The notes: generated by a model from the sequence alone, not told the origin. Counted from the stretch's first letter, positions 5,920-38,422 are shown. The stretch is 64,000 nucleotides of DNA from an uncultured bacterium (GCA_964562525.1 CAZLTL010000001.1:32950-96949), one strand, 5' to 3'. A program made the numbers and translations.

Positions 5920-6078
5920 GTTTTCTTAAATAGACAGACTCTAAGCTGCATATGTTTAAATTCCTTTAATAAAAGGATGCCCTCTACATCTGCCTATGTC
6001 AAAAAAAACAAGATAACAAATCATAGCAAAAACTATCATTTAAATAATAAATAACGTATTTACTATCAAATAATTAGA

Positions 6079-13509: not shown

Positions 13510-13735
13510 GGAGTAACTCCTGGTTTGGTTATTGGTTTTAGTTCTGATAATTAAGGACAAAATAGTTTTCTGCCCTAAAACTGCTTCTCAGACGCATTTT
13601 TGAAATAAATATTCACTCAAACTTCTAAAAATGAATCTTAAGAGAGGGCATATTGTAGACCAAAAAGAGAAACGGACAAGCAAAATCTAGCTTTGTAGTG
13701 GGGGTAAAATTATTTTTATAGGACGCGGTCAGACT

Positions 13736-17280: not shown

Positions 17281-18003
17281 TCAAATACGCAAGCACCGTT
17301 TAGAAAAAGGATGCCAAAAAAAAGCCGGCACTCCGCCTTCAATACTGCCATTTGGACGAACTAAATTGCGAAACAATTCAAAACCGGAAGCATCTTGAAT
17401 AATTGAATTTCGGCTCTCATCGCGAAAAATAAAACAACGATTCGTAGATGTTTCTTTAGATAAAAATTTTTTCATACGCCGCGCCAAAGCTGCGGAATCA
17501 AGTTTATAAAAATCAGTTTTGAGCTTGGACTCCACTCTTCCGAAATCAGCCTCGGTGTGTTTCTCTAATATCCCCCAAAGCGAACCAAACTGGATCAAAC
17601 GCCTTTCGCAAACAGCTTGCTTTGCCGCGTGCCGCGCGAGCAAGCCCGCAAACTCGCTCCAAGTCCGTGGCGCATCTCCTACAAAAAACTGCAGAACTTC
17701 AAACGAGTAATACCCACGCACAACTTCTGACAATTGACGCATCGCACCGGCATAAAAATCTTGAAACGCGCGAAAAATAATTTTCTCATCATCCGTAATC
17801 AAAGAAAAAACACTCAAATTTACCGGCGCGCCGTCAGCGCTCTGCGCCTGATAAAGCACAGCGTCCCCATCGCGCCCCAGCCAACAAAGCGATCCGGGAA
17901 CCAAATTGAGTTCAGGTGGAATAAAAAAAGACTGCTGCTCAAAGAGAGTGAGCGGCTCAATAGGCTTAAGAGCCGGTGATTCATTTTGATCCGGCATATT
18001 CAA
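17281..18003 (-). CDS. Hypothetical protein (240 aa), last gene of a four-gene operon.
   Basis: ORF overlaps the upstream gene by 4 nt. Confidence 0.5.
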   Translation of the reverse strand: MNMPDQNESPALKPIEPLTLFEQQSFFIPPELNLVPGSLCWLGRDGDAVLYQAQSADGAPVNLSVFSLITDDEKIIFRAFQDFYAGAMRQLSEVVRGYYSFEVLQFFVGDAPRTWSEFAGLLARHAAKQAVCERRLIQFGSLWGILEKHTEADFGRVESKLKTDFYKLDSAALARRMKKFLSKETSTNRCFIFRDESRNSIIQDASGFELFRNLVRPNGSIEGGVPAFFWHPFSKRCLRI

Positions 18004-19118
18004 GGCAAAACGACTTGGCGGCTCGGTAATGCTGCCGTTTTTTTTGCCGCCGCCGCCTTAACGGCCTTCTTCTTGCGGATAACTCGAGGATCTTTAAAAA
18101 TCATTTTTTCAACTTGATCTTCGGTCATTTTTTTCTCGGCATAATCAATCCCCAGCGCATTATGGTGGCGGTCTTTCTCGCTTTCCTGCGCGGTATTACC
18201 CGTATCGCCAATTTCGTGCGCGTCGGTCGTTCGACGCGCAAACTCAGCGCCATAGGCTTTTGTAAGCCAATAACTCCAAAAAATATGCCGGATGACGTCA
18301 TACAAAATTTCAGGGTCACGCTTTTGAAGCTTCACGGCGCGCATCTCCGCCTCGCGGCGAAAATGAAGCAGCTTCGGCATTCTTATTAAATTTTGAGAAG
18401 CCAACATCAGATCTGATTCCGTAAATTTAGGCTCAATCATTTCAGCGATAATTCTTAAGTCTTCCGGGTTACCTTCTAAATGAACTTCTCCTTTTTCATT
18501 TTGAACCGAGTGGAACCGGACAGAAATAGGCCAATCGTCGACTAAAAAAACAGCCTTTCCGCTCATGGACAAATTTTTAATCGGCTTATCCTGAAAGATC
18601 CAGTCTTTATAAACACGCGCGCGTTTCAAAACTTGCGCCTTCCAAGAACGAGGATTGCCGTTCAAAAGCAGCCGGGTTTGAAAATCCATTTTAGAGACGG
18701 ATTCAACGCGCTCTTGATCATCACGATCTTCATGCAAAAGCCGCCCACCGCGCGCATTCAATCCGGAAATTTGAACTTGCACCTCGATCCCCTTAAGACT
18801 GATTTGCTTCAAACCTAAGTGAACTTGACTGACAGTTAATTCAAATTCACGCGGATCGAGATAAGGATGTTCAAAGCGGCTAACACCGCGGGCGCGGATA
18901 TTCTTCAGCGCTATGCCCGTTCTTGATAATTTAAACTTTCCATAATCAAAGAAGTTAATTTCAAAACTAGTCCCTTCTGTTTTCTTGACCCACGCTTGCA
19001 ATTGATGATCAAGCCGCGGCTTCAAAATAAGCGCCGCCGTAACAAGCGTCACCACAAAGAGGATGGCTGCGATAATTAAAAGCTGAAAAAATTTGATCAT
19101 ATTGAAGATAGCAATCAA
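18000..19118 (-). CDS. Membrane-anchored protein of unknown function; tandem paralog of the gene at 19122-20276.
   Basis: N-terminal TM helix. The C-terminus has a shared invariant block FWSYWLT..YG.EFARRTTDAHEIGDTGNTAQESEKDRHHNALGIDYA. Confidence 0.65.
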   Translation of the reverse strand: MIAIFNMIKFFQLLIIAAILFVVTLVTAALILKPRLDHQLQAWVKKTEGTSFEINFFDYGKFKLSRTGIALKNIRARGVSRFEHPYLDPREFELTVSQVHLGLKQISLKGIEVQVQISGLNARGGRLLHEDRDDQERVESVSKMDFQTRLLLNGNPRSWKAQVLKRARVYKDWIFQDKPIKNLSMSGKAVFLVDDWPISVRFHSVQNEKGEVHLEGNPEDLRIIAEMIEPKFTESDLMLASQNLIRMPKLLHFRREAEMRAVKLQKRDPEILYDVIRHIFWSYWLTKAYGAEFARRTTDAHEIGDTGNTAQESEKDRHHNALGIDYAEKKMTEDQVEKMIFKDPRVIRKKKAVKAAAAKKTAALPSRQVVLP

Positions 19119-19121
19119 CCC

Positions 19122-20276
19122 TTAAGCAATTTGATTTTGCAAGATACGCGGGTCGGTTAAAATAATTTTCGCGACATCTTGCTCGGAAAGTTTTCGCTGG
19201 GCATATTCAATTCCAAGCGCGTTATTGCGGCGGTCTTTTTCACTTTCCCGCGCGGTATTGGACGCATCCCCGATTTCATGAGCATCCGTCACTCTGCGCG
19301 CAAAATCCGTCCCAAAGGTCTGCGTCAAATAATAACTCCAAAAAACATGTCTGAAAGTGTCATAACTAATTTCCGAACCAAACTGATAGAGCGCTTCCGC
19401 TTTCGCTTCCGCGAGGGTCCGAACATGCAGCAACCGCGGCGTTTTTAAGAAATTCTTGGAAGCAATCCGCACGTCTTCCTCGGTAAATTTAGGTTCAATG
19501 GCGTGGGCGATTTTACGCAAGTCATTTATATCGCCTTCAAGATAAGTCGCCCGATTACGCTCCTTACTCGACGCAAAGTAAACCCGGGTCGTCACGCCAT
19601 CCGTGGCAAATGTCGCGTTCCCGCTCATGTGCACATCCGTCATATGTGCTCCGTTAAAAACCCAACTCTTAAATTGACGCACCCAAACGATAGCCTGCTT
19701 CTTCCATTTCCAAGGTGCCCTGCCAATCGGAATCCAAGCTTGAAAATTCAGTTCTGAAAGGGAATCTAATCTGCGAGGGCTATCCTCCGCTCCGGGGAGA
19801 ACAGCCCCTCCCTGCACATCCAAGCCATGAATATGAAGACCCACGCCCAAGCCCTCACGGAAGTTGCTCTTGAAATAAATCTGTAAAATCGGGATATCCA
19901 TTTCAAATTGGCGGGGCTGAAAATAGGGGTAATCATATCTTATGATCCCGCGCGCGCGCACCTGCTTAAAAACAATTCCTTGGTGGGAAAAACGAAAACC
20001 CCCATATTCAAAAAAGTTAACTTCGAAGTTTCGCCCCTTGGATCGATCCACCCAGCTTTCAATCTTCTGTTTCACGAAAGGTTCAATACCGGAAAAAACA
20101 AAAAAAAGAATACTCGCAACAACAAAAACAAAGCCTAAGCCCGCTCCGATGAAATAAATCTTTTTGCTTAACTTAAAGTCCGGCTTTAATTTAGATTTTT
20201 TATAATGCTTCAGCTCAAACTCATCGTCTTTGCGGGTTTTTCTGTCGATCTCATTCTTTAACTGCGAGTACTTCAC
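19122..20276 (-). CDS. Membrane-anchored protein of unknown function; tandem paralog of the gene at 18000-19118.
   Basis: Same architecture. C-terminal block FWSYYLTQTFGTDFARRVTDAHEIGDASNTARESEKDRRNNALGIEYA. Confidence 0.65.
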   Translation of the reverse strand: MKYSQLKNEIDRKTRKDDEFELKHYKKSKLKPDFKLSKKIYFIGAGLGFVFVVASILFFVFSGIEPFVKQKIESWVDRSKGRNFEVNFFEYGGFRFSHQGIVFKQVRARGIIRYDYPYFQPRQFEMDIPILQIYFKSNFREGLGVGLHIHGLDVQGGAVLPGAEDSPRRLDSLSELNFQAWIPIGRAPWKWKKQAIVWVRQFKSWVFNGAHMTDVHMSGNATFATDGVTTRVYFASSKERNRATYLEGDINDLRKIAHAIEPKFTEEDVRIASKNFLKTPRLLHVRTLAEAKAEALYQFGSEISYDTFRHVFWSYYLTQTFGTDFARRVTDAHEIGDASNTARESEKDRRNNALGIEYAQRKLSEQDVAKIILTDPRILQNQIA

Positions 20277-22561: not shown

Positions 22562-24367
22562 TTATTTCCCCTCTAGCTTGCTTTGTAACTTTTCCAACTC
22601 ACCGCTCAGCTTGATCCATTCTTCTTCGGATTCTTTAATCTGCGATTCTAAAGCTTTGATCTTGTTCATTTTTTCCTGCGAAAAATTGAACGAGTCTTCT
22701 TCCAACTTCTTCTTATCTTTCTGCAGCCTTTCAATCCGGCTTTCCGCCTTATTCGCCTGAATTTTGGTCGAAGTCATTTTCTTGCGAATCTCCTGCTTTT
22801 TATCATCTTCGGCATTCTGCACAGGCTCGATTTTCTTTTCGACCGGAGCTTCCTGCGGAGCGGACGAGAACGAAGCATCGCCGTCATGTTTGGTTTCAAG
22901 CGAATAAACATAATCTTCGTAAGTGCCGGGATATTTTTTTACCGCGCCGTCTTTGACTTCAATAATTTGATCCGCGATCATATTCACGAAAGTGCGGTCA
23001 TGCGAAATAAAGAAAATGGTGCCGTTAAACTTTTTGAGCGCGCGCCCCAAAGCTTCAACGGTTTCAAAGTCTAAATGGTTAGTCGGTTCGTCCAAAAGCA
23101 AAACGTCATTTTTATCCAAAAGTAATCCGGCCAAAATCACTCGGGCACGCTCGCCCCCTGAAAGAAGCGGGATTTTTTTCTGAACATCATCGCCTTTAAA
23201 AAGAAAGCAACCCGCCAAATCTAAAATATCCTGCATCGAAACGCCTTGAGCGGCATGGCGCGATAAATGCGAAATCACGGTATCTTCCTTGTGCAAGGTT
23301 TGAAAAACATGCTGCGCGTAACAAGCCACTTTCAGCTGATAACCCCATTTAAAAGCGCCGGCCTTAGGCGGTAAATCCGCTGTGATCGTTCTTAAAAAAG
23401 TCGTCTTTCCCTGACCGTTGTCTCCCAAAATCGCCACTTTTGAGCCACGCTCCACATCAAAATTAATTTTGGAAGCAATCAATTTATCCGGATAACCGAT
23501 TGAAAGATCTTGGCAATCCAGCGCCACCCCGCCTTTAAGCTCAACCTGCGGAATACGAATATTCATCGCGCCGGCCATTTGCGCAACCTCAATCGTGCTC
23601 AACTTATTTAATGCCTTGAGCCTGGACTGCGCTCGAGCAGCGGTCGATGCCTTCGCTTTAAAACGATCCACGAAAGCCTGCATCTCGGCTTTTTTCTTTT
23701 CAATGCCTTTGTTATAAGCCTCAACTTGGCGGATATTTTCTGATTTAAATTGAAAATACTCTTCGACATCTCCCGGATAAAGCGTGGCTTTGCCATAATC
23801 AATTTCTAAAGTGTGGTCACAAGTTTTTTTCAAAAATTCACGATCATGCGAAACAATCAAATAACCGCCGCGGAACTCCTGCAAAAAATGCTCAAGCAAA
23901 ATCAAGGTAGAAAGATCGAGGTAATTGGTCGGTTCATCCAGAATCAAATAGTTGGGATTCTTAAGCAGCATCGATGCCAATTTAACGCGCGTGCGAAACC
24001 CACCTGAAAGCTCGCCAATTGGCATATGAAACTTGTCATAATCAATTTCAAAGCGGTGGCATATTTCACCGCATTCCCATTCTTCGCGCTGGGTATAACG
24101 CACCAAAAACTCTGCGACGGTTTCTTCTACCTTATAAGGATCATGCTGCTCTAAATAAGCCAAGCGCAAATCAGAGTTGCGAATGATTTGGCCCGAATCT
24201 TTTTCTTCAGTGCCCATAATAATTTTACAAAGCGTGGATTTACCGGCGCCATTACGCCCAATCACGCCAATTTTCTGGTCGCTTCCGAAAGAAGCCGTGC
24301 AGTCGTCCAAAAGAACGCGCGCACCGTAAGTCTTCCTCAAATTTTGAACCTGCAACATGACCGGCAT
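22562..24367 (-). CDS. ABC-F family ATPase (two ABC cassettes plus a C-terminal coiled-coil/charged tail).
   Basis: Two Walker A motifs (GRNGAGKST and GDNGQGKTT) and two LSGG signatures. The start is set at the ATG with an AGGTGA Shine-Dalgarno rather than the GTG of the track. Confidence 0.85.
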   Translation of the reverse strand: MPVMLQVQNLRKTYGARVLLDDCTASFGSDQKIGVIGRNGAGKSTLCKIIMGTEEKDSGQIIRNSDLRLAYLEQHDPYKVEETVAEFLVRYTQREEWECGEICHRFEIDYDKFHMPIGELSGGFRTRVKLASMLLKNPNYLILDEPTNYLDLSTLILLEHFLQEFRGGYLIVSHDREFLKKTCDHTLEIDYGKATLYPGDVEEYFQFKSENIRQVEAYNKGIEKKKAEMQAFVDRFKAKASTAARAQSRLKALNKLSTIEVAQMAGAMNIRIPQVELKGGVALDCQDLSIGYPDKLIASKINFDVERGSKVAILGDNGQGKTTFLRTITADLPPKAGAFKWGYQLKVACYAQHVFQTLHKEDTVISHLSRHAAQGVSMQDILDLAGCFLFKGDDVQKKIPLLSGGERARVILAGLLLDKNDVLLLDEPTNHLDFETVEALGRALKKFNGTIFFISHDRTFVNMIADQIIEVKDGAVKKYPGTYEDYVYSLETKHDGDASFSSAPQEAPVEKKIEPVQNAEDDKKQEIRKKMTSTKIQANKAESRIERLQKDKKKLEEDSFNFSQEKMNKIKALESQIKESEEEWIKLSGELEKLQSKLEGK

Positions 24368-24465
24368 TTCTTCACCTTTCACTCTGGGCTAATGCCCAAC
24401 CGCGGAACCTTAAAATTTTATGAAACAAAACTCAATCTCATGCGTCTTACTTAAAAGAGAAAGCG

Positions 24466-25887: not shown

Positions 25888-26685
25888 CTAGATTTTAAGA
25901 TCGGCCGGAAGCTCAGCGATATACGAACGGATTTCCCCCGTCATCGGGTGCGGGAAAGAAACGCTGGCAGAATGCAGCGCGGGTCTCGGAAAAGTTTTAT
26001 CCTCCGGCAAACCATACTTTGCGTCACCCGCCAGAGGAAAGCCTTTCGCCGCGCATTGAACACGGATTTGATGCGACCGCCCCGTCTCCAGCTCAACTTC
26101 CACCAAAGTCAATTTTTTTCCGTTCTTTTCCGCATAACGCAGCGGCTTCAAACTTAAAATCGCTTCTTTCGCGCCATGGGTCCGGGGCGAAACAACTTTG
26201 ACGGTATTTTTCGCTTCATCTTTTAAAAGCCAATGCACCCACTTTTGCGGATCTCGAATCGCGCCATGCAGCCACGCCAAATAAGTACGGCGAATTTCAT
26301 TTTCGCGCAAAGCTTCGGATAAACGGCTCGCGGATTTAGTGCGCTTCGCGAAAATCATAATCCCGGAAGTATTGCGGTCAAGCCGGTGAATCGTTCCGAC
26401 ATAATGCCGGCCAAAATGAACGCGCAGCCACTCCACCATGGTCGGAGATCCGGAAGCATCCTCCTGAGATAAAAGCCCCGCGGGCTTATCGACAACGATT
26501 AAATGCGAATCTTCAAAAATAATTTTGGGTTTCGTAACAGGGTCCGGAGCATGCAGTTTTTTCTGATAAGGCGAGTTCGCTACGGCTTTGGCAGCGTTGT
26601 TAATCTTATGCTGCTCCCGTTGAAACTCAGCATGCGCGACAACGCGGCGCTGCTGTTTCATTTTTCGGCTGACGCGCTGTTTCAA
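25888..26685 (-). CDS. RluA-family pseudouridine synthase.
   Basis: Catalytic motif HRLDRNTSGIMIFAK. Confidence 0.8.
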   Translation of the reverse strand: MKQRVSRKMKQQRRVVAHAEFQREQHKINNAAKAVANSPYQKKLHAPDPVTKPKIIFEDSHLIVVDKPAGLLSQEDASGSPTMVEWLRVHFGRHYVGTIHRLDRNTSGIMIFAKRTKSASRLSEALRENEIRRTYLAWLHGAIRDPQKWVHWLLKDEAKNTVKVVSPRTHGAKEAILSLKPLRYAEKNGKKLTLVEVELETGRSHQIRVQCAAKGFPLAGDAKYGLPEDKTFPRPALHSASVSFPHPMTGEIRSYIAELPADLKI

Positions 26686-28007: not shown

Positions 28008-28161
28008 TCTACCACAAAAAGCTCTGAACTCAAAAATCAGAAATCAAAACCAGAGATTAATACCCAGCGCTTACAAACTTCCCGGAAGCAAGCCGGCATC
28101 GGCCTTCCGCTTTGGTTTTGAGTTTTGATCTTTGAACTCTAATCTGCTATCATTCCGCCCT

Positions 28162-29802
28162 ATGTTAACAGCCAATGGCGTCACAATTCAGTTTGGTCAG
28201 CGGGTTCTTTTCGATAATGTGAACCTCGCTTTTTCACCCGGCAACTGCTATGCCATAATCGGCGCGAACGGTTCCGGCAAGTCGACCTTCATGAAGGTGC
28301 TTGCGGGTGATCTCGAGCCCACAGCGGGTTCCGTTTCACTCGGCCCCAATGAGCGTCTTTCGATGCTGCGTCAAGATCAGTTCGCTTTTGACGAGCACAC
28401 TCCCGTCAACACCGTCATCATGGGACATAAAAAACTTTATTCCGTGATCCAAGAAAAAGATGCCATTTACGCCAAACCTGATTTTAGCGATGCGGACGGC
28501 GCACGCGCGGCGGAACTTGAAAGTTTATTTGCCGAAATGGATGGTTGGAACGCGGAAGCCGAAGCTGAAAAATTACTTAGTGAGCTTGGCATCGCAGAAA
28601 AATTTCACCGCGTTCAGATGAAAAATCTCGAAAGCGATCAAAAAGTGCGTGTGCTTTTAGCGCAAGCTCTTTTCGGCAATCCCGATGTTTTGCTCTTGGA
28701 CGAACCGACCAACCATCTTGACGTTGAAACTGCCATGTGGCTTGAAAATTTTTTAGCTGAATTTAAAAACACCGCCATCGTGGTTTCGCATGATCGCCAT
28801 TTTCTCGATCAAGTCAGCACGCATACTTGCGACATTGATTTCGGGAAAATCACTTTTTTCTCGGGTAACTATTCTTTCTGGAAAGAGTCGAGCGAACTGG
28901 CTTTACGGCAAAAATCCGATAAGAATAAAAAAATGGAAGATAAACGCGCTGAACTCCAATCTTTTATCGCCCGCTTCAGCGCGAATGCTTCCAAAGCAAG
29001 ACAAGCCACTTCACGTAAAAAGATGCTCGAAAAACTGACGCTTGAAGATATCAAGCCCTCAAGCCGCAAATATCCGTTCATTGGTTTCAATTGCGAGCGC
29101 GAAGCCGGCAATGATTTACTCGCCATTGATAAACTCAGCAAATCCATTGACGGAAAATTGATGTTCAAAAACCTCAATTTTGAAATTCACAAGGGCGACA
29201 AGATCGCTTTTTTCGGAAGAAATGACTTGGCGCGCACCACTCTCTTTCAAGTTTTAGCGGAAGAAATCCCCGCGGATTCCGGGACTTTTAAATGGGGCGC
29301 TTCCACAACCCGCTCTTACTTTCCGAAAGACAATAAAAAATATTTCGATGTCGATCTCTCCCTGATTGATTGGTTGAGACAATTCTCAAAAGAAACCCAC
29401 GAACAGTTTATCCGCGGATTTTTGGGACGCATGCTTTTCACGGGTGAAGAATCATTGAAAAAAGTAAATGTCCTTTCGGGCGGCGAACGCGTGCGCATGA
29501 TGCTTTCCAAAATGATGCTTGTGAACGCCAACGTGCTGATCATGGACGAACCAACCAACCATTTGGATTTGGAATCGATCAGCGCTTTAAACGACGGGCT
29601 TCAGAAATTTAAAGGTACTTTGCTTTTCTCGACGCAAGACCATCAATTCATTCAAACCGTCGCTAACCGCATCATCGAGATTACCCCACTTGGATATATA
29701 GACAAGAGCGGCGTTACATTGGATGACTATTTGGCTGATCCTGAAATTCAAGCCAAACGCACCGCCCTCTACGCCGATTCCTCTGTCCAAGCTCAAGCTT
29801 GA
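28162..29802 (+). CDS. ABC-F family ATPase (second paralog).
   Basis: Walker A motifs GANGSGKST and GRNDLARTT, and two LSGGE signatures. The start is set at the ATG (MLTANGVTIQF). Confidence 0.85.
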   Translation: MLTANGVTIQFGQRVLFDNVNLAFSPGNCYAIIGANGSGKSTFMKVLAGDLEPTAGSVSLGPNERLSMLRQDQFAFDEHTPVNTVIMGHKKLYSVIQEKDAIYAKPDFSDADGARAAELESLFAEMDGWNAEAEAEKLLSELGIAEKFHRVQMKNLESDQKVRVLLAQALFGNPDVLLLDEPTNHLDVETAMWLENFLAEFKNTAIVVSHDRHFLDQVSTHTCDIDFGKITFFSGNYSFWKESSELALRQKSDKNKKMEDKRAELQSFIARFSANASKARQATSRKKMLEKLTLEDIKPSSRKYPFIGFNCEREAGNDLLAIDKLSKSIDGKLMFKNLNFEIHKGDKIAFFGRNDLARTTLFQVLAEEIPADSGTFKWGASTTRSYFPKDNKKYFDVDLSLIDWLRQFSKETHEQFIRGFLGRMLFTGEESLKKVNVLSGGERVRMMLSKMMLVNANVLIMDEPTNHLDLESISALNDGLQKFKGTLLFSTQDHQFIQTVANRIIEITPLGYIDKSGVTLDDYLADPEIQAKRTALYADSSVQAQA

Positions 29803-29834
29803 GATCTGCGTGTTTTGGGTCGATATTTAGACCT

Positions 29835-31556
29835 ATGATCAAAACAAAATTTATTTTGGTTGTTTTAGGTCTTTGTTTAGCCATCGCCACCCCCGCCCGG
29901 TCGGCAGAGGATGCAGACTTCGCCTCAGCCGATACAAACATTGCTTCGCAAATAGAAATCCTCAAAAACCAAAATAAAAAAACCATCGCCTTGCCCCCCC
30001 CCGTTTCAATCGAAGAAAAAACATCTCAAGAACCTGACTCAAAACCCTCAGAAGGAAAACTTCTTGTCAAAAAAATCGTCTTTGAGGGCAATCAAATTTT
30101 GTCAGCCACCGATCTCTCCGCTGTAACTCGCGAAGCAGAAGGACAATCACTCACCTTTGATGAACTTAAAGCTGTCGCAGCAAAAGTTACGGCGCTTTAC
30201 CGCTCCCGCGGTTATTTGATTTCAAGGGCTTTTTTACCGCCGCAGAAAATTCAAAGCGGTATTGTTATCATTCAAATTCTCGAGGGCAAAGCCGGCAAAA
30301 TTAAGGTGGAAGATAACCGCTGGTTTAAAGATAAGATTTACGAGCGCTTCTTTAAAAATCTGAATACCGACAATCCTTTTCAGTACAGTGACTTGGAGTC
30401 CTCCCTTTACTTTTTAAACGAAAAGGAAGACCGTCGCGCCAAAGCTTATCTTGAGCCGGGACAAGAACCCGGCACTACGGATATCACGCTTAAAGCTCAA
30501 GAGAAATTTCCGCTCCATTTGAGTTACGAGTTTAATAATCGCGGCTCACGGTTCACGCATCGTGCCCGGCAAATGGCTCATTTAAGACACACCAATTTAT
30601 TTGGATTTGATGACGTCCTGAACGCGGGATTTTCTTTAGCTGAACAGTCTGCCTTTCAGGCGGCATGGACTCAGTATGTTTTGCCAATTCAGCAAACCGG
30701 AACGGAATTGGGTCTCAATTGGAGCTACGCTCGCACACACCTCGCAAAGCACTTGCGGAACTTTAATATCGAAGGACGTTATTTTGAGATCACACCGAAT
30801 ATCACTCAATCCATTATCCGTCGCCGCACTTTTTCTTTTGACTGGTCAGCCGCGTTTGAGATCAAAGATTCTAAATCAACCGTAGCTAACCTCAAGACGA
30901 GCTTTGACCGCATGCGCGTCATTAAAACAGGTCCACGCTTAACCCATCAAGACCGTTGGGGCAAAACCATTTTTTCAGCGGACACGCATGTCGGACTTGG
31001 AAATTTTATGGGGTCACTTGAAAGCGATGATCCCAACGCCAGCCGCAATGGCGCAGGCGGAAGTTTTGTTTATTATTCCGGCTCTTTAGCGCGGTTCAAC
31101 CGCCTCCCTCTCAACTCTTTCCTCATTTTGAGAGCAGAGGCGCAATGGTCACCTGTCACGCTCACATCACTTGAACAATTTCGTGCGGGAGGAATGTATT
31201 CGGTACGCGGCTATCCCGAATCCGACAGCGCCGGAGACCGAGGCTATGTCACATCGGCGGAAATTAACTTCCCTGTACCGCTTATTCCCAAAGATTTAAA
31301 AATGCCGGGTATCCGCAAAAAATACAGCGAGGTTTTTCGTTTGGCGGGATTTTATGATTTAGGCGCAACCGAAAACAGGTCCAGACAAACACCGGCGGAA
31401 GTAAAAAACCATTTCCTAATGGGGGCGGGCTTCGGTGTTCGCGTCAATCTCGATCAATACCTCAGTATGGTGATTGATTTTGGTTATCCTGTCGGAGATG
31501 AGTCAACCGACAAAGACCAGCCTCAAATTCATTTCTCAGTCAAAGCCGGCTTTTAA
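29835..31556 (+). CDS. TpsB (ShlB/FhaC/HecB family) two-partner-secretion outer-membrane transporter.
   Basis: Signal peptide, a POTRA region and a C-terminal beta-barrel ending in ...FSVKAGF. Family-typical size. Confidence 0.75.
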   Translation: MIKTKFILVVLGLCLAIATPARSAEDADFASADTNIASQIEILKNQNKKTIALPPPVSIEEKTSQEPDSKPSEGKLLVKKIVFEGNQILSATDLSAVTREAEGQSLTFDELKAVAAKVTALYRSRGYLISRAFLPPQKIQSGIVIIQILEGKAGKIKVEDNRWFKDKIYERFFKNLNTDNPFQYSDLESSLYFLNEKEDRRAKAYLEPGQEPGTTDITLKAQEKFPLHLSYEFNNRGSRFTHRARQMAHLRHTNLFGFDDVLNAGFSLAEQSAFQAAWTQYVLPIQQTGTELGLNWSYARTHLAKHLRNFNIEGRYFEITPNITQSIIRRRTFSFDWSAAFEIKDSKSTVANLKTSFDRMRVIKTGPRLTHQDRWGKTIFSADTHVGLGNFMGSLESDDPNASRNGAGGSFVYYSGSLARFNRLPLNSFLILRAEAQWSPVTLTSLEQFRAGGMYSVRGYPESDSAGDRGYVTSAEINFPVPLIPKDLKMPGIRKKYSEVFRLAGFYDLGATENRSRQTPAEVKNHFLMGAGFGVRVNLDQYLSMVIDFGYPVGDESTDKDQPQIHFSVKAGF

Positions 31557-34500
31557 ACAAGTTCGGCTTCATCGCCGTTAACCTGCATGCCATTGGCTTC
31601 CTGCAAATTACCTTGCTTCACTTCAAACAGGTTATTGGAAAGAATGATCGGAGCATTGGGGTTGATTGACTCAGAAAAACCGCCACTTTCCTCGTTCGTG
31701 TTTTCATTATCTGAATTTTCTGTATCTTGCGGCTCTGGCTGGTCATTGCTGAATTGTGTATTTGAAAAATCACTTCCCGAAAAACTATTGGTGTCTGTTC
31801 CGCCGCTCGTTACAAACGGTGCCAATGACCGCTGAATTTCATTTTCACGGTTTGCTGTTTCCGCCGGTGTCACTTCGGTATTCGAAGGCGGAGGAGGAGT
31901 AAACCAACCCGTCGTTCCTCCTAAGTTAATTGAATTGGCTGGATCAAGCGGTAAAGTGAGGCCACTGGAATTATCCGTAATTGTGCCGTCTTGAATACTC
32001 AAATAATTACCCGTAAAAGTCGCGGCGTTCGTGAGATCAAATGTTCCGGCGCCGTTCAACACAAGGCGGTCGTCCTCATCAAGCCCGTCTAATGTCAGTG
32101 AATTCGTCACAGTTTGAGTGTTTCCCGAGGCAAGCGACAAAGTCCGTGAAGCCTCATCATTCGTCGCATCAGCTTTGGTGAGATTATAAAAAGTCGTGTT
32201 TCCTGAAATCGCTTGGTCACTTCCATCCAAAGTTACTGTTCCGGTTCCCGCGGTAAATGTTCCGCCTGTGCGGCCAAAATCTCCCGCAACATTCATACTA
32301 GCGGGCGCGACAAAAGTCCCGGCCGATTGCGTGAATGAATTATTCAAATCCAAGTCCGATGCCGCGGTAAAGGTTCCCGAACCGCTGATCACTAAATTAA
32401 AATAATCATTAGCTCCAAAATCTTTCAGCGTACGGCTGCCGCTGCCCGTGTAATTCCATGTTCCGGAATCAGTATCATTGTTGGTCAGCCCTGTAATGGT
32501 TTCCGATCCGATAAGCTGAACTGTTCCATCATTCGAAAATGTTGCACCGGTCATCCACCAACTAAACCCGTTTAAATTGAATGTTCCGGCAGAGTTTGTA
32601 AAACTGCTACCAACATTCATCGCATCGAGCAGACGCAAAGTACCGGTACCGGAATGGGCAATACCACTAAAAACTTGTCCGCCGGATGTAATATTTTGCG
32701 TTCCGGCGCCATTTAAAACGATTGTTCCTGTATTCGTAACTCCACCGGCGGATCCTCCCGCGCCACCCGAATTTCCACCTTGTGCACCTGTGGTTCCGCC
32801 AGACAAAGTAATATTGCCGCTGACTTGGACTTTTTCATTTCCGGCATCTAACGTCGCAGCGCCGCCATTTCCGCCTGCACCACCAAGCCCTCCGCCATAA
32901 TCATTTCCCATATAATTCACACTATTTCCAGTTGTGCCGCCGCTCCCTCCATTGCCTGCGACAACATTTAAGTTGCCTGTAACTGATGTTATTCCGCTTC
33001 CGGCAATATAAGTAGCACTAGCTCCATTCACCCCTGCGGAACCATCTGATCCGCTGTTACAGATGTTGATATCACAAACCGCATCGGTTCCGGATGTCCC
33101 ATCGGTGCCATTTCCGGCCATAATTGTTAAACCGCCATTCAAATTCTGATTACCGCTGCGGGCAGTATAATTCCCACCGCTTACGGTCGTTAAACCGCCT
33201 ACCGTTGTTTGCAATCCATTCGCATCATAATTTCCGGCTGAGTTTGTAAACGCTCCGGTAACAGTAAGATTATTGCCGGTTAGCTGTAAAGTTCCGGCAC
33301 CGCTATGCTGCAGCGCAGCAAAACTTTTTCCACCACTATCCAACGTCTGAGTTCCCGAAGCTTTATCAAAAATAGCAGTTCCTGAGTTAGACATCGTAAT
33401 TCCGGAACCCAAACTAACGTTGCCTCCATAATTTTGAACTCGTGAATTTACATTAAACGCCCCGCTTGTTACGCTAAAATCACCGTCCAGATCCAAATTA
33501 TCAACAAGCCGCAATGTTCCCGAACCGGAGTATTTGAGACTGCCAAGATTTTCACTATTTGAAGTAATATTTTGCGTTCCCGAACCATTCATCAATAAAG
33601 TACCGGTATAAGTATTAACCCCCTGAGCTCCCCCTGCCCCACCTGCGCCACCAGCGTTATTGTCGAAGCTACTTCCGTCGCTGCCCTGACTGCCATTCGT
33701 TGACGCCACCAAAGTAATGTTCCCTGTCACCCTTACTTTTTCATCTCCTGCATTCAACGTCGCATTTCCTCCCGTGCCGCCCGCACCCCCAGCACCTCCG
33801 CTACCCCCATTAGAATTTCCGCCGGTTCCACCATTTCCACCGGATCCCGATTGAATAATCAAATTTGTCGTTGTCGTAATACCCGAACCGGCTGTATATG
33901 TTGCGCTTACACCGGATGTTCCATCAGAACCTGCCGCGCCACCATCTTGCGCATGCTGGCCATCCGTCCCGCTGTTTCCGCTACTTGCAAGAATACTTAA
34001 CCCGCCATTCAAATTTTGGTTCCCAGTACCAGCTGTATAAGTTCCTCCGCTAACAGTCGTTAACCCACTCACTGTTGTCTGCAAACCATTTGCATTATAT
34101 GTTCCGGATGAATTAGTAAATGCACCTGTCACAGTAAGGTTATTTCCGGTCAATTGTAAAGTTCCCGCGCCAGCATGCTGAACCTCAGCAAAAATTTTTC
34201 CGCCGCTATTTAATGTCTGAGTTCCGGAAGCCTTATCAAAAATAGCATTGCCCGCGTTGGAAAGCGTAATTCCCGAACCCAAACTTACATTGCCGCCATA
34301 GTTTTGTGTCTGCGAGTTCGCATTAAATGTTCCGCTTGTCACACTCAAGTTACCATTCATATCCAAATCGTCCGTAAGCCGTAAAGTTCCTGCGCCCGAA
34401 TACGTTAAATTCGCACTAACGCTCGCTGAATTACCTGTAGTTAAATTTTGGATTCCTGATCCGTTTAAAGTGATCTCTCCCGTCGTCACTGCGGAACCAC

Positions 34501-36358
34501 CCGCACCACCGGCTTGATAGTTATAGCCATCTGAATAGTCACTTCCGGCAGATCCCGAATTAAGAGTCAAATTACCGGTAATCGTCGTGTTTGCTGAGGC
34601 GTTAAATCCAGCTGAGCCCCCGGTTCCCCCAGTATAATTAAGGCCAGAGCTACCGCCACTGCCTCCTTGCGCAGATAGGCTGCCCGAGATTGTCAGCGTT
34701 CCTTCATTGCCGATCAAAGCATTTCCTCCGTCAGTACCACCACTAGCCACAACATTTAAACCTGCGCCGGCATTTAAAACAGCATCCCCGCTAAATGCGG
34801 CGGTTGCGCCAGAACTTATACTTAACGAGGCATTTCCGCCGTTGAAAGTACCTGCACCATCTCCGTTATACTTCCCTTCCGAAGCGCTTAAGAGCAAACT
34901 TGTCGCACTTAAACTTGCTCCGCTTGCAATAGTCAAGCTCGCTCCACCTGCGCTCTGATCACGGCTTGACGCATAAATTCCAAGTGCCCCGGTTGTTAAA
35001 TCTCCCGAGTTAAGAGTCAGCGTCGTCCCTGTAGCAGAATAGTATGAATCACCATTTAAAATGTAGCTCCCACTTCTGATGCTGAGTGAATTGCTAGTGA
35101 TATCATTGTGCCCCACAAACTCTGTGCTTGAATAGGAGGCATAAAGTGTGAGGTCGACGACACCTGAAATCGTCCGCAAAGTCGGCCCGCTTCCGGCGAG
35201 ATCGGGGTTTTGACTTGAATAAATGGTTAGGTTATATCCTTGTCCTAGAATTGATGTTCCTTCTTGCATATAGAAAACACCATTACCATCGCACGCGCTG
35301 CCACCTTCCGAACAATCTCCATCACTATCAAGATCGGCCCCTAATATAATCGCATTACCAAGATAAATATCCGAAGTCACAATCAAATCACCGGTATCAT
35401 AAATGTTCGAGCCAATGCTTCCGCCAATTTCAGCGGCGCCGTCTAAATTGTCAAAATGAGCATTTCCACCCAGCAGGGCTCCTGAGGTTCTGAATGTGTA
35501 AGCTTTTTCACTAAATTTATTGGTATTGATCGTTCCGCTATTTTCGACTGCCCCGTTCGAAACAAATTCGACAACGCCGTCTCTCTCAACCATACGCGTC
35601 GCCTCAATAATGCCGGTATTGTTCACAAGTGTATCAAGCGTGACATTGATGTCTTTCGCGGTCAGCATTACCTTTCCGCCATTCGCTCGCAGAGTTCCGC
35701 TATTTTCAATCAAAGAATTTGCCGTACCTTCATCGACAACCAAATTGATTGATCCGTTGTTATCAAAAGAAATTGTTTGCTTCGATCCCGAACCCAGGAC
35801 AACTCGCCCAAGATTCGCTTCCAAGACGCCTTTGTTTTGAATTTGTTCAGCAAGAAAAACAATGTTCGTCGCGCTAATATTCGCCTCATTCAAAATCTTT
35901 CCAATTTCACTTCCCAATACTTTTTGAAATTCATAGTTACCGGATTGAAAGTTTTCTTTTGAAATATCAAGCGTAGAAGCAATTAATGAAGCGATATCGA
36001 TTTGTGCATTCGCGTGAAAGTTAATTCCGTTTGTGTTCACAAGAAAAACAATTCCATTTGAATAAAGCGCGCCCCAAATATCGGTAGCACTTCCACCTAA
36101 GACACGGTTTAATATGCTGCTTGTTTCGTTCGGCAAGATAAACCGCACTGATTGATCCGCACCGATTGAAAAACTATCCCAATCAATTGTGGCGTGATCA
36201 GGGGCATTGATAACAAGAATATTCGGATCCGTTGTATCCACCGTGACACCTTCACTCGCAGTCATACCGCTGGGCAATTGCTGCGCCATCACAGGCTGAA
36301 TAGCCATAAAAAAGACAAGCACCAAACTGAGTAATGATCTTATTCTTTTCAAAAACAA
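31553..36358 (-). CDS. TpsA-type exoprotein of 1601 aa: an N-terminal TPS (haemagglutination-activity) secretion domain followed by a Gly/Ser/Thr-rich beta-helical repeat region and an acidic low-complexity C-terminal tail.
   Basis: TPS-domain motifs SILNRVLGGSATDIWGALYSNGIVFLVNTNGINF. Signal peptide MFLKRIRSLLSLVLVFFMAIQPVMA, assuming a TTG start. Three tandem ~290-aa units. Confidence 0.85.
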   Translation of the reverse strand: MFLKRIRSLLSLVLVFFMAIQPVMAQQLPSGMTASEGVTVDTTDPNILVINAPDHATIDWDSFSIGADQSVRFILPNETSSILNRVLGGSATDIWGALYSNGIVFLVNTNGINFHANAQIDIASLIASTLDISKENFQSGNYEFQKVLGSEIGKILNEANISATNIVFLAEQIQNKGVLEANLGRVVLGSGSKQTISFDNNGSINLVVDEGTANSLIENSGTLRANGGKVMLTAKDINVTLDTLVNNTGIIEATRMVERDGVVEFVSNGAVENSGTINTNKFSEKAYTFRTSGALLGGNAHFDNLDGAAEIGGSIGSNIYDTGDLIVTSDIYLGNAIILGADLDSDGDCSEGGSACDGNGVFYMQEGTSILGQGYNLTIYSSQNPDLAGSGPTLRTISGVVDLTLYASYSSTEFVGHNDITSNSLSIRSGSYILNGDSYYSATGTTLTLNSGDLTTGALGIYASSRDQSAGGASLTIASGASLSATSLLLSASEGKYNGDGAGTFNGGNASLSISSGATAAFSGDAVLNAGAGLNVVASGGTDGGNALIGNEGTLTISGSLSAQGGSGGSSGLNYTGGTGGSAGFNASANTTITGNLTLNSGSAGSDYSDGYNYQAGGAGGSAVTTGEITLNGSGIQNLTTGNSASVSANLTYSGAGTLRLTDDLDMNGNLSVTSGTFNANSQTQNYGGNVSLGSGITLSNAGNAIFDKASGTQTLNSGGKIFAEVQHAGAGTLQLTGNNLTVTGAFTNSSGTYNANGLQTTVSGLTTVSGGTYTAGTGNQNLNGGLSILASSGNSGTDGQHAQDGGAAGSDGTSGVSATYTAGSGITTTTNLIIQSGSGGNGGTGGNSNGGSGGAGGAGGTGGNATLNAGDEKVRVTGNITLVASTNGSQGSDGSSFDNNAGGAGGAGGAQGVNTYTGTLLMNGSGTQNITSNSENLGSLKYSGSGTLRLVDNLDLDGDFSVTSGAFNVNSRVQNYGGNVSLGSGITMSNSGTAIFDKASGTQTLDSGGKSFAALQHSGAGTLQLTGNNLTVTGAFTNSAGNYDANGLQTTVGGLTTVSGGNYTARSGNQNLNGGLTIMAGNGTDGTSGTDAVCDINICNSGSDGSAGVNGASATYIAGSGITSVTGNLNVVAGNGGSGGTTGNSVNYMGNDYGGGLGGAGGNGGAATLDAGNEKVQVSGNITLSGGTTGAQGGNSGGAGGSAGGVTNTGTIVLNGAGTQNITSGGQVFSGIAHSGTGTLRLLDAMNVGSSFTNSAGTFNLNGFSWWMTGATFSNDGTVQLIGSETITGLTNNDTDSGTWNYTGSGSRTLKDFGANDYFNLVISGSGTFTAASDLDLNNSFTQSAGTFVAPASMNVAGDFGRTGGTFTAGTGTVTLDGSDQAISGNTTFYNLTKADATNDEASRTLSLASGNTQTVTNSLTLDGLDEDDRLVLNGAGTFDLTNAATFTGNYLSIQDGTITDNSSGLTLPLDPANSINLGGTTGWFTPPPPSNTEVTPAETANRENEIQRSLAPFVTSGGTDTNSFSGSDFSNTQFSNDQPEPQDTENSDNENTNEESGGFSESINPNAPIILSNNLFEVKQGNLQEANGMQVNGDEAELV
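32609..34390. repeat. Intragenic tandem repeat: about 2.05 copies of a ~870-bp unit (~80% nt identity) inside tpsA.
   Basis: Protein units begin GTLRLTDDLD (aa 657), GTLRLVDNLD (aa 947) and GTLRLLDAMN (aa 1239). The DNA similarity has an offset of about 860-870 nt (for example 33190 aligns with 34050). Confidence 0.8.
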
Positions 36359-36564
36359 ACGAATGCTCCCCTTTAAACTAGTTATTTAGTAAGTGTCCGG
36401 GCACAATACAAAAGTAACATCAATGCATATAAAAACAATACTTCTTATAACTTTTAATAACATTGATTAAGTCTAATTATTCCAATATGTTAGGTTAATT
36501 GACGAAAAATGACCTAAGAAGCTGTTACTGACATCTTCACCCCAGATACGGGATCTGGGATGGG

Positions 36565-37365
36565 TTAGGTTTCGAAAAAGCGCTTAAGCTCGGCGGGTAG
36601 CGGAGAGCGAAAGGAAATTTTTTCTTTCGTTACGGGATGCGTAAATTCAAGCAAACAAGCGTGCAAAGCAAGGCGGCGCAATCCAACCGTTTCAGCCATC
36701 CAGTCCTGCCAGCCATGATGAACATAATGGTCATAAATTTTCAAATCGATGTACATTTTATCGCCTGCAATCGGGCAACCGATGGATTTCAAGTGCACAC
36801 GCAATTGATGCGTTTTTCCGGTATGAGCCACAAGCCTCAAAAGACTGTATTTGCCGCGCGTTTCCAATAATTCATATTCCGTTTCAGCGCTTTTACCTTC
36901 GGGATGTGGTTCATAGATGTGGCACAATAAATCTCTGCGCCCCTTAATAGGTTCGCGAATGAATCCATGCTTTTCAGCCGGAACACCCAAAACAATCGCC
37001 TGATATTCTTTGCGGACTTTTTTATCTTGTAGCGCGGAGCCGAGTTTCCCTGCCATTTCTTCATTGCGCGCGACCATGATCAAACCGCTAGTTTCGGAAT
37101 CAAGCCTATTGGCGAGATGCATTTTCTGACCGTAATCGCGCTCAAGAAAAGAAAGTAAATTGCGCGTTTGAAAACGGCTCACGGCATGTACGGGAAAAGG
37201 CGAACCTTTGACAACGATGAGCAAATCGGCGTCTTCAAAAATGACGTCGTATTTCTCGTCCATGTAAAGATCTTCGTCTTTACGAAGCGGCGGCAAGCCC
37301 GGACGGCCTTCAGCTCTCACCCGAATCTCTTTGTTCATTTCATCCATAGAAAAAAATTGTACCAT
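36565..37365 (-). CDS. RluA-family pseudouridine synthase (second paralog).
   Basis: Catalytic motif HRLDSETSGLIMVARN. Confidence 0.8.
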   Translation of the reverse strand: MVQFFSMDEMNKEIRVRAEGRPGLPPLRKDEDLYMDEKYDVIFEDADLLIVVKGSPFPVHAVSRFQTRNLLSFLERDYGQKMHLANRLDSETSGLIMVARNEEMAGKLGSALQDKKVRKEYQAIVLGVPAEKHGFIREPIKGRRDLLCHIYEPHPEGKSAETEYELLETRGKYSLLRLVAHTGKTHQLRVHLKSIGCPIAGDKMYIDLKIYDHYVHHGWQDWMAETVGLRRLALHACLLEFTHPVTKEKISFRSPLPAELKRFFET

Positions 37366-37412: not shown

Positions 37413-37610
37413 ATGCCTGCTTTAAAAAATCATAACTCGGTCCTTTTCAACGTCTTCATGACGGCATTTTTATTTTTGATCATTTATTTAACTTTGATAT
37501 TTCCGAGTCCGATTCAAAAATCCATTTTAAACAATCTTGAAACAACAGAGCTGACTCAAATTCAAAACGGAGGCCCGCGAACAACTCCTCTTTTAAGGAA
37601 TTTACGCTAA
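37413..37610 (+). CDS. Possible small membrane protein (65 aa) overlapping the pilZ-domain gene start.
   Basis: Hydrophobic segment FNVFMTAFLFLIIYLTLIF. ATG overlaps the downstream gene. No other support. Confidence 0.2.
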   Translation: MPALKNHNSVLFNVFMTAFLFLIIYLTLIFPSPIQKSILNNLETTELTQIQNGGPRTTPLLRNLR

Positions 37611-38422
37611 TGCCCCCTCTCAAAACACAACGCGCCTGCATCCGCCTCCCTTGTGAAATCCAGGCAGAAATCAAATTTTCCGGCGGCAACTCTTTTGTAA
37701 CGAAAAAAGCAATCATCAGCAATGTCAGCACTACCGGCATTCAAATTCTCTCCCCCTCATTTGTTGCGACAGGGCAAAAACTAACCGCTTGCTTCAAGAT
37801 TCCCGGACAATCAAAGGAAACATACAACGCTGAAATCATGCGAATTGAGAGCCTTCAGGGACGCATGATCGGCCATTATCCCTACGCGCTGGGCGCGCGA
37901 TTCATCGATTTTAAACCCAAACAAGAAAAGAAAATTACAAGCTATATTACCGGAAAAATCTCATGCCGCTCTTGGAGGAACACCCTAACTTGGCTTTTCT
38001 TGTTTTTGGCAGGCTCAGAATTAGGTCGAGTTGTTGTTCACACCTATTTAAATCAAAAAGCACTCCAACCTTCAGCGTGGGAGCTGGCAGCGCCTTTTGT
38101 CTGCGCATTATTTGGGGCGGGATTCTTGCTTACCGCGGCATCGGCATTTCTAAACAGAAAAAGCTTTACGGCCTTGGGGCTTATTTTTACAAGCGCAGGA
38201 ATAATCTTGGCAACCGCGCGCGTGGCGCTCAAAGCACCGCTTCTATTTGCAAGTGAAACAGGCGCTTTTATCTGGAGCTACGAGGTTATTATCTTTGCGG
38301 TTCAGGTCATGCTGATCGTGACGCTAATTAAACTTAAAAACTACTTCAAAAAAATGGAAATGGTTCTAGCAAACGAAAAAATATCTCCCGCTTCCGGCCG
38401 CCCCACCTTTACGATTCTCTGA
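37610..38422 (+). CDS. PilZ-domain (c-di-GMP-binding) protein with a C-terminal polytopic membrane region.
   Basis: RxxxR motif (QRACIRL) followed by (D/N)xSxxG (NVSTTG). Four predicted TM helices in the C-terminal half. Confidence 0.6.
   Translation: MPPLKTQRACIRLPCEIQAEIKFSGGNSFVTKKAIISNVSTTGIQILSPSFVATGQKLTACFKIPGQSKETYNAEIMRIESLQGRMIGHYPYALGARFIDFKPKQEKKITSYITGKISCRSWRNTLTWLFLFLAGSELGRVVVHTYLNQKALQPSAWELAAPFVCALFGAGFLLTAASAFLNRKSFTALGLIFTSAGIILATARVALKAPLLFASETGAFIWSYEVIIFAVQVMLIVTLIKLKNYFKKMEMVLANEKISPASGRPTFTIL

Follow-up and report, generated by a model that had tools for sequence, protein, structure and literature searches.

A convergent two-partner secretion gene pair with a predicted non-toxic TpsA in an uncultured Omnitrophota bacterium

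A second subfamily of two-partner secretion (TPS) domains, which includes those of EtpA, HxuA and HMW1, has been described, and the C-termini of HMW1 and HxuA are known to stay periplasmic, locked by a disulfide loop in the pore of their TpsB transporter (PMC5422565). Here, we analysed a gene pair encoding a TpsB transporter and a large TpsA exoprotein, carried by a stretch of 64,000 nucleotides (nt) from an uncultured Omnitrophota bacterium (GCA_964562525.1 CAZLTL010000001.1:32950-96949; this whole stretch is called the window below, and positions are counted from its first letter). The HMW1A/HMW1B (Haemophilus influenzae), HxuA/HxuB and EtpA/EtpB systems resemble this pair by the sequence of their TPS domain and by a non-toxic beta-helix passenger; HMW1 and HxuA also share with it a distinct element at the extreme C-terminus that could act as an anchor, and the transporter gene is found 3' of tpsA as in hmw1A-hmw1B. 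In contrast with this group, the window genes are convergent instead of forming one operon, the passenger shows no sequence relationship outside the TPS domain and, as compared with HMW1 and HxuA, the C-terminal motif has no Cys pair or disulfide loop. A further difference from HMW1 is that no HMW1C/EtpC-type (GT41) glycosyltransferase was found among the window open reading frames (ORFs) scanned (most, not all, of those of at least 150 amino acids (aa)), while N-x-S/T sequons are not enriched (35 in the window sequence versus 37.4 +/- 5.2 in shuffles). Glycosylation of the HMW1C type was rejected on these two grounds.

The FHA/FhaC (Bordetella) and CdiA/CdiB systems share other features with the window pair: an Omp85-family TpsB with POTRA domains and a VRGY motif in L6, CdiB being the best match of the window TpsB in the Protein Data Bank (PDB), and a large beta-helical exoprotein whose C-terminal region is of low complexity and contains proline. 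Unlike FHA and CdiA, the window TpsA has no Fil_haemagg/FHA repeats and no NPNL...NPNGI pair, carrying LNRV (aa 83) and NTNGI (aa 108) instead, and it comes without a VENN motif, toxin or immunity gene; no FHA, ShlA or CdiA-type structure was matched by its TPS domain in a PDB sequence search (E<=1). The window system is not a contact-dependent inhibition (CDI) system. The Omnitrophota TpsA proteins P0003 and P0004 (loci L003 and L002) also resemble it, with TPS domains that are 39-52% identical in the best alignment, TpsB proteins of the same clade (42-46% identity) and the same convergent layout, but they have a YNCE/lactonase-type beta-propeller passenger instead of a beta-helix, neither acidic tail nor C-terminal motif, and they lie at other genomic sites.

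Omnitrophota are uncultured, mostly ultra-small bacteria that are suspected to be host-dependent or predatory. Work on this group centres on giant unannotated proteins as possible adhesins, and two-partner secretion is mentioned in neither of two studies in which adhesion is discussed for giant ORFs only (PMC10066038; bioRxiv 10.1101/2023.11.21.568195).

Table 1. Positions of the two partner genes, their parts and the flanking genes in the window
Feature	Position	Strand	Remarks
tpsB	29835 (ATG) to 31556	+	573 aa; mechanical ORF from TTG 29799
tpsA	36358 to 31553	-	1601 aa; based on ORF, translation, start context and TPS domain
TPS secretion domain, aa 26-278	35525..36283	-	PF05860, TIGR01901; HMW1/HxuA/EtpA type
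Two tandem ~300-aa modules	32804..34582	-	internal BLAST, AlphaFold aa 560-1200, identity profiles
C-terminal beta-helix block, aa ~1190-1486	31901..32791	-	AlphaFold; ends GWFTPPPPS
C-terminal tail, aa ~1487-1601	31556..31900	-	Pro-rich linker, helix, acidic spacer, motif
4-nt overlap of the convergent genes	31553..31556	.	TTAA within ttTTAAac; kept in L001 and L128
Promoter-like element TTGAGA-17 nt-GATATT	29799..29827	+	overlaps the ABC-F stop; 7 nt before the tpsB ATG; no Shine-Dalgarno
tpsA upstream region, AT-rich, 206 nt	36359..36564	-	promoter-like site TCGTCA-18-AATAAT, 36505..36476
ABC-F ATPase gene, left flank	28132..29802	+	NF011646, 1.6e-201; not part of the system
RluA-family pseudouridine synthase gene, right flank	36565..37365	-	Pfam/NCBIfam; not part of the system

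The TpsB transporter and its predicted TpsA partner

The original prediction had read this locus as a two-partner secretion pair without a toxin/immunity module, and both ORFs that it described (29799..31556 on the plus strand and 31553..36358 on the minus strand) are found in the window. Profile searches above the family cut-offs in Pfam and NCBIfam, together with PDB sequence matches, support this reading for both partners. TpsB matched ShlB (PF03865, 5.4e-31; 108.6 bits for a cut-off of 22.7) and POTRA_2 (PF08479, 8.5e-21; 74 bits for a cut-off of 24), with an additional Omp85 match at 1e-11, confirming that it is a ShlB-type transporter, and its closest solved relative by PDB sequence search is CdiB (6wim, 4e-16). 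The ATG at 29835 is its likely start, yielding a typical signal peptide (MIKTKFILVVLGLCLAIATPARS followed by AE), after which come a POTRA region and a ShlB-type barrel that carries the L6 motif VRGY at aa 457 and ends on a C-terminal Phe (F573). This gene is linked to tpsA by adjacency, convergence and a 4-nt overlap.

The tpsA gene starts at the TTG at 36358, located 8 nt after an AGGGGAG Shine-Dalgarno, and a signal peptide identified by inspection only (M-FLKRIRSLLSLVLVFFMAIQPVMA followed by QQ) precedes the TPS domain. That this domain is a clear one was borne out by matches to PF05860 (1.9e-23; 84.1 bits for a cut-off of 33.5; aa 26-278) and to TIGR01901 in NCBIfam (2.3e-17; 62.7 for a cut-off of 29.1). 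Its only significant PDB sequence matches are EtpA (8vba, 2.8e-31), HxuA (4i84, 3e-30) and HMW1 (2odl, 5.8e-20), and by such sequence comparisons it belongs to the second, HMW1/HxuA/EtpA subfamily of TPS domains. The Fil_haemagg (FHA-1/FHA-2) repeats that had also been suggested for a search (PF05594, PF13332) gave no Pfam match in TpsA, nor did PT-VENN.

Internal BLAST comparisons of the passenger revealed two modules (aa ~593-883 and ~877-1185) that are 60-61% identical, followed by a third, degenerate copy (aa ~1207-1404). The AlphaFold model of aa 560-1200 is of lower confidence (mean predicted local distance difference test (pLDDT) of 61) and shows each module as a beta-solenoid block of short strands (pLDDT 70-80), after which comes a Gly-rich stretch. 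Thus, the long Gly-rich beta-helix initially proposed for TpsA is borne out in part, by the predicted beta-solenoid blocks; no confident model was obtained for the Gly-rich stretches. The C-terminal beta-helix block was modelled with a pLDDT >90 over most of its length, and modules related to it are found in other Omnitrophota and in candidate phyla radiation (CPR) proteins. When five passenger and C-terminal segments were compared with Pfam (E<=5), the only matches were one to PATR, below its threshold, and one that is spurious.

AlphaFold modelled the last 412 aa with a mean pLDDT of 78.7: a confident beta-helix extends to ~aa 1490 and is followed by a short helix, by ~60 residues with a pLDDT <50 and by a terminal beta-hairpin. 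The tail therefore runs from a Pro-rich linker through this short helix and an acidic Ser/Asn/Glu-rich disordered spacer (~60-80 aa) to a terminal motif (NAPIILSNNLFEVKQGNLQEANGMQVNGDEAELV), at the end of which the hairpin is predicted. The acidic Ser/Asn/Glu-rich tail that had been noticed is indeed present, but the protein does not end with it: behind it comes a conserved motif of ~35 residues, with the consensus …PI.IS..LFEV..G.L.EA…..G(D/E).(A/I/V)EL(V/I)-COOH. This motif is kept in L001, in L005 (…NVPIFISKKLLNIHAGALPEANKIKISGETIELI) and in the fragment P0121 (…NVPIYISKSLFEVREGDLPEATEVQFSGDTIELI), and a more divergent version was found in two codirectional relatives, L010 (…GPIFG…AGHAIMSGDGVELVS) and L024 (…GPIYG…AGHIILHPGGVELVP), with shuffle tests of the window/L005 type of motif against L010 giving p=0.0005-0.002. 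It is absent from all 118 other TpsA matches. Endings of the EL[VIL] type occurred in only 9 of 1608 background ORFs, five of these nine being the motif-bearing TpsA proteins themselves. The motif is very rare: a phmmer search with the last 122 aa against 1.84 billion representatives matched four proteins, and a search with the motif alignment against a 5.8-billion-protein collection returned one word-sharing candidate and no scored match.

No toxin/immunity module was found, as originally proposed. A motif search detected no VENN or pretoxin motif in TpsA, no passenger or C-terminal segment matched a toxin domain in Pfam (E<=5), the last 122 aa had no PDB sequence match (E<=10) and the model of the C-terminal region consists of a beta-helix and a disordered tail. 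Past the tpsA stop there is no same-strand immunity ORF, the only ORFs being antisense ones of 30-57 aa inside tpsB. Of the three hallmarks of CDI systems that were looked for (a VENN motif or toxin boundary, an immunity gene and FHA repeats), none was found.

Altogether, we consider it probable that the locus encodes a functional type Vb pair in this uncultured member of the Omnitrophota, with a non-toxin TpsA, a C-terminal anchor, an inherited gene inversion and a tpsB gene that has its own promoter. TpsA would be a Sec substrate expressed from a promoter of its own, the POTRA domains of TpsB would recognise its HMW1/HxuA/EtpA-type TPS domain and the protein would be threaded through the TpsB barrel. 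Outside the cell, it would fold into a ~1200-residue beta-solenoid fibre made of the duplicated ~300-aa modules, which the terminal motif behind its flexible acidic spacer would keep attached at the transporter or in the periplasm, by analogy with the HMW1/HxuA anchor. The tail-to-tail gene order would come from an inversion of the tpsA-then-tpsB order of a sister branch and would have been inherited since, tpsB would be read from a promoter near its ATG, and the gene overlap and the adjacency to the ABC-F gene would be by-products of tight packing. TpsA itself is most likely a non-toxic, surface-exposed adhesin or fibre, whose exposed core appears to diversify rapidly. A bolder and distinctly speculative proposal is that the Cys-free motif behind the acidic spacer may be a new TpsA retention element that plugs or docks to the TpsB of this clade, so that the hypervariable fibre would stay on the cell surface of these ultra-small Omnitrophota and could serve there in attachment to a host or prey, with the tail-to-tail layout and a leaderless or short-leader tpsB transcript being part of a separate expression of the two partners.

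A site between ABC-F and rluA that is occupied or empty

The pair occupies ~29803..36564 (6.7 kb, two genes) between the ABC-F and rluA genes. Both flanking genes have a paralog in the window, at 22562..24382 (minus strand) for the ABC-F ATPase and at 25888..26685 (minus strand) for RluA, the two RluA paralogs being 30% identical. The window ABC-F protein falls into a 90%-identity cluster, and the contigs of its members were compared for synteny. L128 is fully syntenic with the window, including tpsB and tpsA, and full synteny was also found for L125, L126 and L127, where both TPS genes are missing. These three contigs are mutually 99-100% identical in the three flanking proteins compared, and at their empty site the convergent ABC-F and rluA genes overlap by the 4 nt TTAA (L125:11635-11638, L126:10223-10226, L127:6217-6220). 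The more distant L005 is also syntenic with the window (ABC-F 91%, BrkB 70%, RluA paralog 73%) and is occupied. In a tree of ABC-F, BrkB and RluA, L005 branches outside the group formed by the empty lineage and the occupied window/L128 pair, so that the more parsimonious explanation is one loss and not two gains at this site. L127 and L007 belong to the same metagenome-assembled genome (MAG; UBA2337), in which the convergent pair was lost at this site and a codirectional pair is kept elsewhere.

The genes of this region differ strongly in how far they have diverged. Between the window and L128, identity is 96% for ABC-F, 92% for BrkB and 98% for the RluA paralog, and falls to 78% for TpsB; within TpsA, it is 96-97% over aa 1-200, 21-36% over aa 300-1300 and 57-58% over aa ~1340-1535. 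At the DNA level, the window and L001 are 95-99% identical over 31100-31850, which covers the 3' end of tpsB, the junction and the 3' end of tpsA, whereas rluA reaches 79-89% and the passenger core 57-80%. Such a mosaic is suggestive of either recombination or a nucleotide-level constraint. The pattern as a whole shows a hypervariable passenger and points to recombination and/or diversifying selection on a presumably exposed shaft, as expected for a contact surface.

Such observations could also be taken to mean that the pair is a recently acquired mobile cassette and not an ancestral resident that was lost once: it is polymorphic for presence at an otherwise identical site, TpsB and TpsA diverge far beyond the flanks, and identity with L001 is a mosaic. 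We nevertheless find this unlikely, considering that no direct or inverted repeats of at least 7 nt border the cassette, that its G+C content (0.46-0.47) is that of the flanks (0.45), that no integrase or transposase gene is found nearby and that the position of L005 favours one loss over two gains. Insertion of a mobile element is thus unsupported by the boundaries, by the composition and by the tree.

The variable core bears on function as well. TpsA might be secreted by TPS without being an adhesin: it could capture a ligand, like HxuA, form a fibre with an ice-binding or coat function, or be a beta-helix enzyme acting on carbohydrates. Its TPS domain has HxuA among its closest matches, no known adhesin repeat was detected, and the top rows of a Foldseek search of the PDB with the C-terminal model include ice-binding proteins, pectate lyases and tailspikes. 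All these structural matches are non-significant, however (E>=0.3, template modelling (TM) score <=0.27), and reflect a generic beta-helix fold only, no linked gene for a TonB-dependent receptor or other partner was found, and an exposed core that diversifies rapidly is more in line with a contact surface than with an enzyme, making a non-adhesin role rather improbable.

Convergent layout and transcription of the pair

The convergent tpsB(+)/tpsA(-) pair is real, as judged from the ORFs and from the junction read in the window (ggcTTTTAAAca). The stop codon TAA of tpsB occupies 31554-31556 and that of tpsA is the reverse complement of 31553-31555. Therefore, the genes overlap by 4 nt, but the stop codons, for which an overlap of 4 nt had been reported, have only 2 nt in common. 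The same 4-nt overlap is found in two further assemblies, L001 and L128 (where it reads TTTTAAAC), indicating that this layout is not an assembly artefact. The overlap is limited to the closest relatives of the window: in the more distant L005, the two genes are instead 138 nt apart, and this spacer holds a strong hairpin (CCAGATCCCGGATCGAGTA…TACTCGGTCCGGGATCTGG, L005:11750-11795). In the window, an arm of this hairpin recurs no more than expected by chance, and a hairpin and terminator search gave no convincing candidate at the tpsB/tpsA junction.

The closest TpsA relatives come from MAGs of Candidatus Omnitrophota, and the convergence proved to be a trait of a clade rather than a peculiarity of this locus. 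P0002 (L001) is 81% identical to the window TpsA and shows the same order of rluA, tpsA and a convergent tpsB with the 4-nt overlap. P0004 (L002) and P0003 (L003/L004), which share the TPS domain with the window protein and carry beta-propeller passengers, have a convergent tpsB directly downstream of tpsA at their own sites, with gaps of 139 nt (L002) and 11 nt (L003). In L005, the neighbour of tpsB is a large convergent ORF, cut short by the contig end, that is 58% identical to aa 577-1601 and 45% identical to aa 138-459 of the window TpsA; in L009, a convergent ORF that also runs off its contig has weaker beta-helix matches and a propeller-like end. Convergence is thus found in six Omnitrophota lineages of one TpsB clade (the window, with L001 and L128; L005; L002; L003; L009), which a neighbour-joining tree of TpsB resolves as (window, L005) + ((L003, L002), L009), all convergent. 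A sister branch (L007, L010 and L024) has tpsA then tpsB in codirectional order with gaps of 13-28 nt, and the outgroups L011 and L012 have tpsB then tpsA. Throughout the clade, tpsB is always 3' of tpsA. From these sequence comparisons, the convergent state is best described as a putative inversion of the order seen in the sister branch (tpsA, then tpsB), persisting down to ~42% TpsB identity.

We then surveyed GTDB species representatives with the TpsB alignment and with local hidden Markov models (HMMs) of TPS domains and TpsB, counting genes less than 2 kb apart as pairs. Among the 85 sources, some of which are redundant copies of one contig or lineage, tpsA preceded tpsB in codirectional order in 16 and followed it in another 16 (with two more such pairs that overlap), the genes were divergent in 14, mostly from cyanobacteria, convergent in eight and fused in two; in another 27, no tpsA lies within 2 kb of tpsB. 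Non-operonic TPS layouts are therefore not rare outside model systems, and pairs that are not codirectional are common among the TpsB proteins surveyed. The apparent fusions are single ORFs of ~1620 aa that match both the TPS-domain and the TpsB HMMs in two cyanobacterial MAGs of Okeania sp. (L073 and L082). A metagenome scan with the TpsB alignment yielded, among the matches listed, only TpsB relatives of at most 32% identity, none of them convergent and none with the terminal motif. The contigs of P0005-P0008 carry no adjacent TpsB. L121 is an apparent frameshifted passenger, and a 9.9-kb contig carries two tandem tpsA genes (L122:3856-9915) with no adjacent tpsB and an AbiEii gene nearby.

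It had been proposed that tpsB is co-transcribed with the upstream ABC-F gene, which now appears doubtful. The ABC-F/tpsB adjacency exists only in the genus-level group of the window, and in L002, L003 and L009 the gene upstream of tpsB is divergent, so that tpsB cannot share the transcript of its neighbour there. In addition, a TTGNNN-17-GATAWT element is found upstream of tpsB in all three ABC-F-linked loci (TTGAGA…GATATT in the window, TTGCCC…GATAAT in L128 and TTGAGC…GATAAT in L005). In these loci, 4-12 nt separate the -10-like box from the ATG and a Shine-Dalgarno is absent, and in L002 and L003 -10-like boxes lie 0-16 nt from the tpsB ATG. These sequence features suggest that tpsB may have its own promoter and a leaderless or very short-leader mRNA. 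On the other side of the pair, the region upstream of tpsA is ~90% conserved with L128, and no Rfam match was found in the tpsA leader, the scan revealing no cyclic di-GMP (c-di-GMP) or other riboswitch. A gene for a PilZ-domain protein (window 37610..38422, plus strand) lies two genes from tpsA. A hairpin (CCCAGATacgggATCTGGG) is located beside the rluA stop (36540..36560), also in L128; this short hairpin is related to that of L005, and both are possible terminators.

Whether the convergent overlap could be a regulatory device deserves to be weighed here: with no room for a terminator, antisense transcripts would form, and interference or RNA duplexes would couple the outputs of TpsA and TpsB. 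Indeed, the genes leave no space between them and their junction lacks any hairpin or terminator-like site, convergence is retained down to ~42% TpsB identity, and the 750 bp over the junction that are so similar between the window and L001, compared with rluA, could reflect a constraint at the nucleotide level. Several observations make this idea quite improbable. The spacers in L005 (138 nt, with its strong hairpin) and L002 (139 nt) show that the overlap itself is not conserved, the unrelated ABC-F and rluA genes share the 4-nt TTAA overlap at the empty site, other convergent gaps in these genomes are as short as ~7 nt (as for another convergent pair on the L125-L127 contigs), the sister branch works with a codirectional pair and, given the mosaic, recombination explains the high junction identity equally well. 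The overlap looks like ordinary gene packing in this lineage rather than a regulatory device, because ABC-F and rluA overlap by the same TTAA in the contigs without the cassette. In general, these genomes seem to have very tightly packed convergent junctions.

Weighing the reading and its setting in the Omnitrophota

That TpsA might instead be a polymorphic toxin or CDI-like effector, with a toxin and an immunity protein too novel for current profiles, is extremely improbable: a conserved N-terminus with a variable remainder does resemble polymorphic toxins and the last 122 aa have almost no relatives among 1.84 billion representatives, but it is the beta-helix shaft that varies while the extreme C-terminus is conserved, the tail is predicted to be disordered with a short hairpin and no globular domain, there is no VENN-like boundary, FHA-1/FHA-2 repeat or downstream same-strand ORF, and the TPS domain is of the HMW1/HxuA/EtpA and not of the CdiA/FHA/ShlA type.

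Several points weigh against our reading of the locus as an anchored, non-toxic fibre with its own tpsB promoter. The promoter-like elements are consensus matches, and a scan of the region gave no more such sites than expected by chance; read-through from ABC-F into tpsB is possible. The trees are simple neighbour-joining trees on few taxa. The terminal motif is missing in the TpsA proteins with beta-propellers whose TpsB falls into the same clade, showing that it is not required for secretion, and it has no Cys pair, unlike the HMW1/HxuA anchor, the only Cys residues of TpsA being at aa 349/356 and 1095/1100. The Gly-rich stretches have a pLDDT <50 and no confident model, and Pfam searches on the passenger segments found no adhesin repeat. 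Finally, expression, secretion and adhesion are predictions for a system that is known here from its genes.

If this reading is correct, Omnitrophota would also rely on a secretion pair of a classical type, accessible to experiments, for the display of a fast-evolving fibre. This TPS pair comes and goes at a fixed chromosomal site and offers a compact two-gene, 6.7-kb candidate for cell-cell attachment in this phylum. To the biology of two-partner secretion, it would add a clade with a stably inherited convergent, two-promoter layout and a candidate disulfide-free C-terminal retention motif, leaving the general picture of type Vb secretion unchanged.

Other genes of the window and of its relatives encode large or potentially surface-exposed proteins. 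In the window, an ORF of at least 1975 aa on the minus strand (1..5925) runs off the left end and has no Pfam match at 1e-4, resembling the large unannotated proteins of Omnitrophota. In L002, a giant gene on the minus strand (L002:1-5169; 5205-aa product) with a faint HEAT_2 match only lies ~5 kb from the convergent pair. Also on the minus strand of the window, an 838-aa protein with six PKD domains (11044..13560) and tandem DUF6973 paralogs (18000..19118 and 19122..20276) may be surface-exposed or secreted.

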